Source: an uncultured archaeon (GTDB lineage Archaea; Asgardarchaeota; Thorarchaeia; Thorarchaeales; Thorarchaeaceae). From it: a DNA stretch of 64,000 bases. Positions 36,416 to 37,050 of the stretch are shown here, in pieces (position 1 is the first letter of the stretch; every line of letters starts with the position of its first letter). The stretch covers positions 1-64,000 of the forward strand of contig CAYYQL010000002.1 in NCBI GenBank assembly GCA_964473825.1, read 5' to 3'. The translations under genes were made by a program, and so were the position numbers. The notes beneath the pieces were generated by a model. It saw only the letters and a list, made by a program, of their open reading frames with translations, was not told the DNA's origin and did not search any database.

Positions 36416-36854
36416 AACCGGCGAACAGCGTCTACTCAGACAAGAAACAGGATGTGTGCGATTCTGTGACTGAAAAGATCACTTGTTCCTCCAAGAGTCT
36501 ACTGCATCCATGCATATGATAGCAACGCTCTATGCCGCGCGGTCATAGCTTCTGGTGTATCGCCACAGAACAATACAGCCTACCACTACGATGGGAACTA
36601 CGATGAGGACAGCCAGAAGAAAGGGGTCTGGACCTAGAGGTGGTAAAACGACATCCTGCAAAGCTATCACTCCCAGCCATGAATCAGAGAGTGTGCTATT
36701 ACGCTTTCTACCGTGTGTCAGGAAGTGTTCAGAGTACTGTTGCCAAGCGCTCCATAGCGAGCAATCAGAGATTCGCCCATTGACAATGTGACGGAGTTCT
36801 TGTATCGGGATAGCAATCTTAATATTCAATCCGTGGCCGTTCTGCGTTGCACTT

Positions 36855-37050
36855 GCCGCCGTGGCTCAGCCGGTAGTTGTTGTTCCTCTTGAGGAGCAGC
36901 AGCTGAAAGCGACAACGCCTTGCACTCCGCAATGCGGCGCTCTAGCCTGTTACCTTTCGGTCAGGTGGCCGAGAGCCAGACAGTTGTAGTGCATCACGCT
37001 TCGTGATGTGCGACGTATGGTCCCAGGTTCAAGTCCTGGCGGCGGCGCCA
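36855..37050 (+). tRNA. tRNA-Asn (GTT) with four introns at 22/23, 28/29, 37/38 and 43/44
   Basis: exons 36855-36876, 36908-36913, 36944-36952, 36982-36987 and 37018-37050 join into a 76-nt cloverleaf; each intron has BHB-like geometry. Confidence 0.85.

Follow-up and report, generated by a model that had tools for sequence, protein, structure and literature searches.

The plus-strand segment at positions 36855-37050 of the window, the 64,000-nt stretch of archaeal DNA analysed here, is very probably its host's single, functional tRNA-Asn(GUU) gene, interrupted by four BHB-type introns that would be spliced by the endonuclease EndA and the ligase RtcB. The decisive support for this predicted four-intron structure is comparative, and comes from orthologous genes in which some or all of the introns are missing.

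Anatomy, annotation and host of the tRNA-Asn gene

When the four introns listed in Table 1 are removed and the five exons joined, the locus yields a 76-nt tRNA-Asn(GUU), with alternating exon and intron segments of 22/31/6/30/9/29/6/30/33 nt in the 5' to 3' direction. ARAGORN identifies the spliced 76-mer as tRNA-Asn(GTT) with every stem paired (acceptor 7 bp, D 4 bp, anticodon 5 bp including one G-U, T 5 bp). The product carries the G73 discriminator and an encoded CCA, the latter a feature of nearly all tRNA genes in the host genome, and direct reading of the spliced tRNA recovers the invariants U8, A14, G18, G19, A21, U33, G53, U54, U55, C56, A58 and C61, as well as the G15-C48 pair. No open reading frame of at least 80 aa overlaps the segment on either strand. 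A preliminary description of the window had proposed this gene with the same coordinates, exon and intron lengths and 76-nt product, all of which we reproduced; its internal exons of 6, 9 and 6 nt came out the same on re-reading, and its paired stems and G73 agree with the ARAGORN call.

Table 1. Positions in the window of the exons, introns and upstream element of the tRNA-Asn locus.
Feature	Position	Strand	Description
BRE/TATA-like element	36812..36826	+	TATA-like octamer, 36819-36826; lies at about -36 to -29 relative to the mature 5' end
Exon 1	36855..36876	+	tRNA positions 1-22: acceptor 5' strand, D-stem 5' strand, D-loop, G22; kept in 26 orthologues
Intron 1	36877..36907	+	31 nt, site 22/23; interrupts the D-stem
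Exon 2	36908..36913	+	tRNA positions 23-28, 6 nt; no variation among orthologues
Intron 2	36914..36943	+	30 nt, site 28/29; interrupts the anticodon stem
Exon 3	36944..36952	+	tRNA positions 29-37, 9 nt; anticodon GTT at 36949-36951
Intron 3	36953..36981	+	29 nt, canonical site 37/38; interrupts the anticodon loop
Exon 4	36982..36987	+	tRNA positions 38-43, 6 nt
Intron 4	36988..37017	+	30 nt, site 43/44; at the anticodon-stem/variable-loop junction
Exon 5	37018..37050	+	tRNA positions 44-73 and encoded CCA (37048-37050)

The BRE/TATA-like element upstream of the gene probably acts as its promoter. A motif of this type, 15-17 nt long and almost invariant, is present ~29-43 nt upstream in 26/26 orthologues regardless of their intron content, and is conserved far above the surrounding spacer across the 26 family genomes. 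TA-rich boxes of a similar kind precede other tRNA genes of the host.

On the raw DNA, neither ARAGORN nor Rfam reports a tRNA at 36855-37050, and ARAGORN run with introns allowed miscalls the locus as a tRNA-Ile with a 119-nt intron, in line with the earlier expectation that standard annotation would overlook the gene. A search for any other tRNA-Asn in the host genome by three methods (ARAGORN -i, DNA similarity search and an intron-stripping survey) found none. Since the gene is apparently the only tRNA-Asn in the genome and is invisible to ARAGORN and Rfam, automated annotation would report an essential tRNA as missing.

The host genome is a metagenome-assembled genome (MAG) of 103 contigs, 95.7% complete with 4.4% estimated contamination. 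Rfam finds 33 tRNAs in it. ARAGORN -i makes 41 calls, among which are several false ones that span introns of 0.4-1.9 kb. At this level of completeness, the mere 33 Rfam tRNAs imply that several isoacceptors are hidden. Neither Rfam nor ARAGORN -i nor the survey recovered Ala-GGC, Arg-GCG, Pro-TGG, Thr-TGT or Trp-CCA in the host, and further hidden or split tRNA genes in this genome are likely. About half of the host tRNA genes (~20) are intron-free. The intron-stripping survey, a rough count, pointed to further candidate multi-intron genes, with three introns in Gly-GCC and two each in Ser-CGA, Pro-GGG and Met; tRNA-Asn was the longest locus and the sole four-intron parse, within the limits that the permissiveness of ARAGORN sets on such a count. 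At the tRNA-Asn locus itself, ARAGORN accepts 966 alternative excision combinations, some with other anticodons. Given this permissiveness, the ARAGORN call alone is weak, and the survey serves only as rough context.

Among other features of the host's tRNA complement, ARAGORN reports a tRNA-Sec(TCA) with encoded CCA at C35:13546-13636 on the minus strand, which suggests that this Asgard genome uses selenocysteine. Separately, 16 nt of the intron 2 hairpin recur exactly, in reverse orientation, at C2:177988-178003, 16-31 nt upstream of a tRNA-Leu(TAA); with an E-value of 0.011, this match is possibly due to chance.

The host had been guessed to be an Asgard archaeon, and its genome encodes a eukaryote-like actin (437 bits), while the three best named relatives of the methyltransferase adjoining tRNA-Asn, a gene widely shared with bacteria, are from Thorarchaeota MAGs. 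On these grounds we take the host to be an Asgard archaeon, probably of the class Thorarchaeia. The genome also encodes the enzymes that splicing would call for, namely RtcB (605 bits) and two EndA paralogues, one of 188 aa on contig C3 near 103.3 kb and one of 221 aa on contig C2 near 166 kb. The alignment of the 188-aa EndA with 3P1Z_B, the catalytic subunit in the heterotetramer of A. pernix, runs end to end and takes in the N-terminal loop region (E 3e-42); the Tyr, His and Lys contexts of the two proteins align. The 221-aa paralogue is divergent and lacks the catalytic His. We predict that the two proteins are the catalytic alpha and the structural beta subunit, respectively, of a heterotetramer-type endonuclease. 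An (alpha-beta)2 EndA with a broad-specificity L1 loop has been described throughout Asgard archaea, in a study that also read the incomplete tRNA sets of these genomes as a sign of disrupted tRNA genes still to be identified (Kaneta et al. 2018, PMC5829648). By analogy with that work, the host EndA is presumably of broad specificity, and the segment at 36855-37050 is one of the disrupted Asgard tRNA genes that it foresaw.

Intron presence and absence across 26 orthologues

We searched the DNA of 40 relatives and then compared 26 orthologues of the host's family (L001-L021, L138-L142) by spliced alignment. Each relative carries one tRNA-Asn locus, with between 0 and 4 introns. The compact end of this series is represented by the intron-less gene of G013, which is 94.6% identical to the spliced sequence of 36855-37050 and scores 70.1 bits with the Rfam tRNA model, a score that we used as a proxy for scoring the spliced 76-mer. 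Compared with this gene, the host locus contains four extra stretches, each of which is also absent in some other orthologue. Within the host's genus, G002 has all four introns, while G001 lacks exactly intron 1 and keeps the other three.

Six insertion sites are used in the family: 22/23, 28/29, 37/38, 43/44, 50/51 and 56-60 (about 59/60). Among the 26 orthologues, site 22/23 is occupied in 10, with intron 1 precisely absent from G001 and 16 others, and site 28/29 in 9, intron 2 being absent from 17/26. The canonical 37/38 intron is the most widespread (23/26), followed by that at 56-60 (about 16); site 43/44 holds 10 complete copies and a truncated copy in G011, and site 50/51 is occupied in three genes. 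Four introns occur in 8/26 species, in three combinations, and none of the 26 genes has five. Because orthologues lacking all or some of the introns are available, all four excisions are fixed to the base, and the presence/absence pattern across the 26 species defines the boundaries independently of any splicing motif.

The same series bears on whether the four inserts could have arisen in assembly or binning. The sequence does come from a metagenome-assembled genome with some estimated contamination (4.4%), yet the same architecture is found in the independent assembly of G002, at 93% identity, and seven more species have four introns in related combinations; the contig, moreover, is a long one on which many further archaeal tRNA genes lie. 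An artefact is therefore extremely improbable.

Introns were uniform in length at all six sites, 60/70 being 29-31 nt long (range 26-33), which suggests either that their origin was size-limited or that the endonuclease requires a certain size. The 3' end of the gene is more variable in the family: 21/26 orthologues encode CCA and five (L014, L019, L020, L021, L142) do not, so that CCA encoding was gained or lost within it. In another Asgard family, the tRNA-Asn of G028 (L024) has a single 20-nt insert near 39/40, outside the six sites described above.

Exons and introns differ in how well they are conserved. Mature tRNA-Asn sequences are about 80-99% identical across the family, and introns occupying the same site have mean identities of 0.61-0.68 with their hairpins kept, so the comparison with relatives bears out the higher exon conservation to be expected of the proposed gene. 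With RNAalifold, compensatory double changes were found at 3 hairpin pairs of intron 2, at 4 of intron 3 (12 orthologues) and at 5 of intron 4 (10 orthologues). For intron 2 the central helix was also recovered, in 8-9/9 orthologues; it was recovered for this intron only, and in introns 3 and 4 the outer pairs were preferentially placed in alternative registers. RNAalifold returned no structure for intron 1, the diverged hairpins of which could not be aligned by MAFFT; by a register-based count, each of its orthologues has its own hairpin of 5-10 bp. The compensatory changes within the intron hairpins imply selection for a splice-competent structure. As the exon side of the central helix is invariant, the register itself is not testable by covariation, save partly for intron 1, where partial covariation is seen between a D-loop base and the intron base paired with it (C-G, U-A and A-U combinations, against four A-G exceptions).

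This selection weighs against reading the locus as a decaying, insertion-riddled tRNA pseudogene whose working counterpart lies in an unassembled part of the genome. A MAG of 103 contigs at 95.7% completeness leaves room for a second copy, and the locus goes unrecognised by standard tools. Against this stand the intactness of every exon base and tRNA invariant, and the retention of exons, promoter motif and intron structure across 26 species, with one locus in each relative. We consider a pseudogene highly unlikely, and a functional tRNA-Asn gene remains the preferred reading.

Splice motifs and a proposed processing route

By the published definition of the BHB motif, the central helix joins the four exon bases that precede the 5' bulge to the four intron bases that precede the 3' bulge. 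Both bulges are 3 nt long, and each is cut after its second base. BHB geometry was found at all four boundaries, each intron forming a hairpin of its own, as had been noted earlier together with the same four central helices, including one mismatch each in introns 3 and 4. In intron 1, the central helix has 4/4 pairs (two of them G-U), the inner hairpin 10 bp and the outer helix 2 bp. Intron 2 combines a 4/4 Watson-Crick central helix with an inner hairpin of 7 out of 9 pairs (two mismatches), which begins one base off the strict register, and has no outer helix. The central helices of introns 3 and 4 each have 3/4 pairs, with inner hairpins of 9 bp and 10 bp; the outer helix is the anticodon stem in intron 3 and essentially absent in intron 4. 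Central helices are thus strict in introns 1 and 2 and relaxed in introns 3 and 4, and all four introns have a flanking helix of at least 2 bp by virtue of the inner hairpin h' (10, 7, 9 and 10 pairs). The register of each central helix is the same in the orthologues.

Because the four helix-bulge-hairpin modules do not overlap (36871-36905, 36908-36941, 36947-36979 and 36982-37015), they can coexist as a tandem array. In the minimum free energy (MFE) fold of the precursor (-92.8 kcal/mol), all four hairpins are retained, and the BHB central helix is retained for intron 2 only; the four-module model, at -78.1 kcal/mol, is 14.7 kcal/mol less stable. We estimated how often such motifs arise by chance from the 316,484 candidates that satisfied our relaxed BHB criterion in ~131 million (position, length) trials genome-wide, or ~2.4e-3 each, which puts the chance of four cloverleaf-fixed boundaries all passing at ~3e-11. 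The intron-less G013 orthologue and the precise presence and absence of introns in relatives are a stronger control than this estimate.

The folding results raise the question of whether a real gene might be processed in some way other than by four BHB excisions, with shifted boundaries, by a different route of removal, or after refolding of the precursor. Several observations would fit: introns 2 and 4 have relaxed motifs that lack an outer exon-exon helix, the MFE fold and RNAalifold favour other registers for introns 1, 3 and 4, relaxed BHB-like motifs are frequent by chance (preprint 10.64898/2026.10.13.758758), and intron 2 can be drawn at either 28/29 or 29/30 with an identical product. 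The boundaries of introns 1, 3 and 4, however, are unique given the mature sequence, the orthologues lacking introns fix the excisions to the base, and for intron 2 it is the placement at 28/29 that gives 4/4 central pairs, which the shifted register does not. We know of no other pathway of tRNA intron removal in archaea. Taken together, processing that departs from the four-BHB model seems very unlikely.

Under the four-BHB model, transcription from the conserved BRE/TATA-type promoter would produce a precursor of ~200 nt, in which each intron and the four exon bases upstream of it would fold into a local helix-bulge-hairpin module with a strict or relaxed BHB. The alpha/beta EndA would cut in each bulge of each module, and RtcB would ligate the exons into the 76-nt tRNA-Asn, with CCA already encoded. 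The sequence comparisons show the anatomy of the gene, its exact intron boundaries, the conservation of its structure and the presence of the enzymes; splicing itself, acceptance of the relaxed motifs by EndA and the order of cutting are inferred from them. In introns 2 and 4, bases of the mature D-stem and anticodon stem are taken up by the central helix, and consequently no cloverleaf would form before splicing. With internal exons of 6, 9 and 6 nt and motifs that share bases with the tRNA stems, stepwise, ordered or coupled cutting and ligation is to be expected.

Intron turnover and comparison with known systems

The distribution of introns points to rapid change among close relatives. In the RtcB tree, the host (G000) and G002 are sisters with G001 as their outgroup (support 99/90 and 100/100). 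Intron 1, which G001 lacks, has recognisable relatives in other genera (0.74 identity), and its precise loss in G001 is accordingly the simplest reading. Turnover within a genus is also seen: at RtcB branch lengths of 0.02-0.03, G005 has introns at sites 37 and 50, and G020 and G045 have them at sites 37, 43 and 59.

Introns at 43/44 (such as L006 and L142, the group to which the host intron at 36988-37017 belongs) resemble those at 50/51 (L019, L020 and L021) to an unusual degree. The mean cross-site identity of 0.68 (max 0.80) equals the mean within 43/44, while all other pairs of sites have mean identities of 0.49-0.59. Introns at these two sites co-occur in no gene of the 26, and species with nearly identical RtcB have an intron at different ones of the two. 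Where the intron bases GGCT are present, they can pair with the exon bases 5' of either site. The difference between 43/44 and 50/51 may thus reflect a possible 7-nt relocation of the intron. That the ~30-nt introns of the family more broadly are a mobile population, moving from one splice-competent site to another over genus-level timescales, is a tentative proposal, to which we give somewhat less than an even chance.

Copying of introns within the host genome is unsupported as a source of the four introns, as searches for copies of them elsewhere in that genome returned short, chance-level matches only. If relocation is real, these 26 species, whose tRNA-Asn genes have 0-4 introns at six sites, would offer a tractable natural experiment on the gain, movement and precise loss of archaeal tRNA introns.

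The canonical archaeal tRNA intron reportedly lies at 37/38 and has an hBHBh' motif, an account that goes back to Marck and Grosjean in 2003. Intron 3 resembles it: the anticodon stem serves as outer helix, positions 32-35 take part in the central helix, and the inner hairpin has 9 bp. It differs in the central helix, where most members of the family have a U-C mismatch in place of one pair. Introns 1, 2 and 4 depart from the canonical intron in lying at non-canonical sites.

Work on Thermoproteales (Sugahara et al. 2007/2008; Fujishima et al. 2010) reportedly describes BHB or relaxed HBh' introns at many positions, with at most three per gene, as well as multi-intron tRNAs that need an (alpha-beta)2 EndA with a specificity loop and related introns at different positions. 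The preliminary description gave the same classical maximum of three. Thermoproteales belong to a different phylum (TACK), and the gene described here has four introns instead of three and no intron copies elsewhere in its host. In the red alga Cyanidioschyzon merolae, multiple ectopic BHB-like tRNA introns and permuted tRNA genes are known (PMC3728597). Its genes resemble the present one in carrying several BHB-like introns at non-canonical positions in one tRNA gene; unlike the host, C. merolae has a eukaryotic nuclear genome in which some tRNA genes are circularly permuted, whereas the tRNA-Asn gene is collinear.

The closest parallels come from other Asgard archaea. In Atabeyarchaeia and Freyarchaeia, 92-95% of tRNA genes contain introns, more than half of them several (Valentin-Alvarado et al. 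2024, PMC11291895), with a highest curated count of three in the Atabeyarchaeia-1 part of the supplementary table. Up to five intervening sequences per Asgard tRNA gene have since been reported, 30% of them missed by tRNAscan-SE, mostly in the D-arm (Goswami et al. 2026 preprint, 10.64898/2026.10.13.758758). The gene described here shares with those genes several short introns at non-canonical sites with BHB-type boundaries, many of them in the D-arm, the failure of standard annotators, and introns revealed by compact relatives (here G013). It differs from them in its host, probably a member of Thorarchaeia, a group not mentioned in the main text of either study, and in intron length, 60/70 introns in the family being 29-31 nt long as against a reported median of 22-23 nt. 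With about half of its tRNA genes free of introns, the host is not of the "97% interrupted" type.

The four-intron tRNA-Asn is real, but of a kind already described in other Asgard archaea; having been called exceptional at first, it turns out to share its intron number with other orthologues in the family (8/26 in all), and heavier interruption in Asgard archaea has already been published. The locus adds Thorarchaeia to the Asgard lineages in which tRNA genes are split into micro-exons, and its fast within-genus intron turnover and candidate relocation bear on how BHB introns enter and leave tRNA genes.
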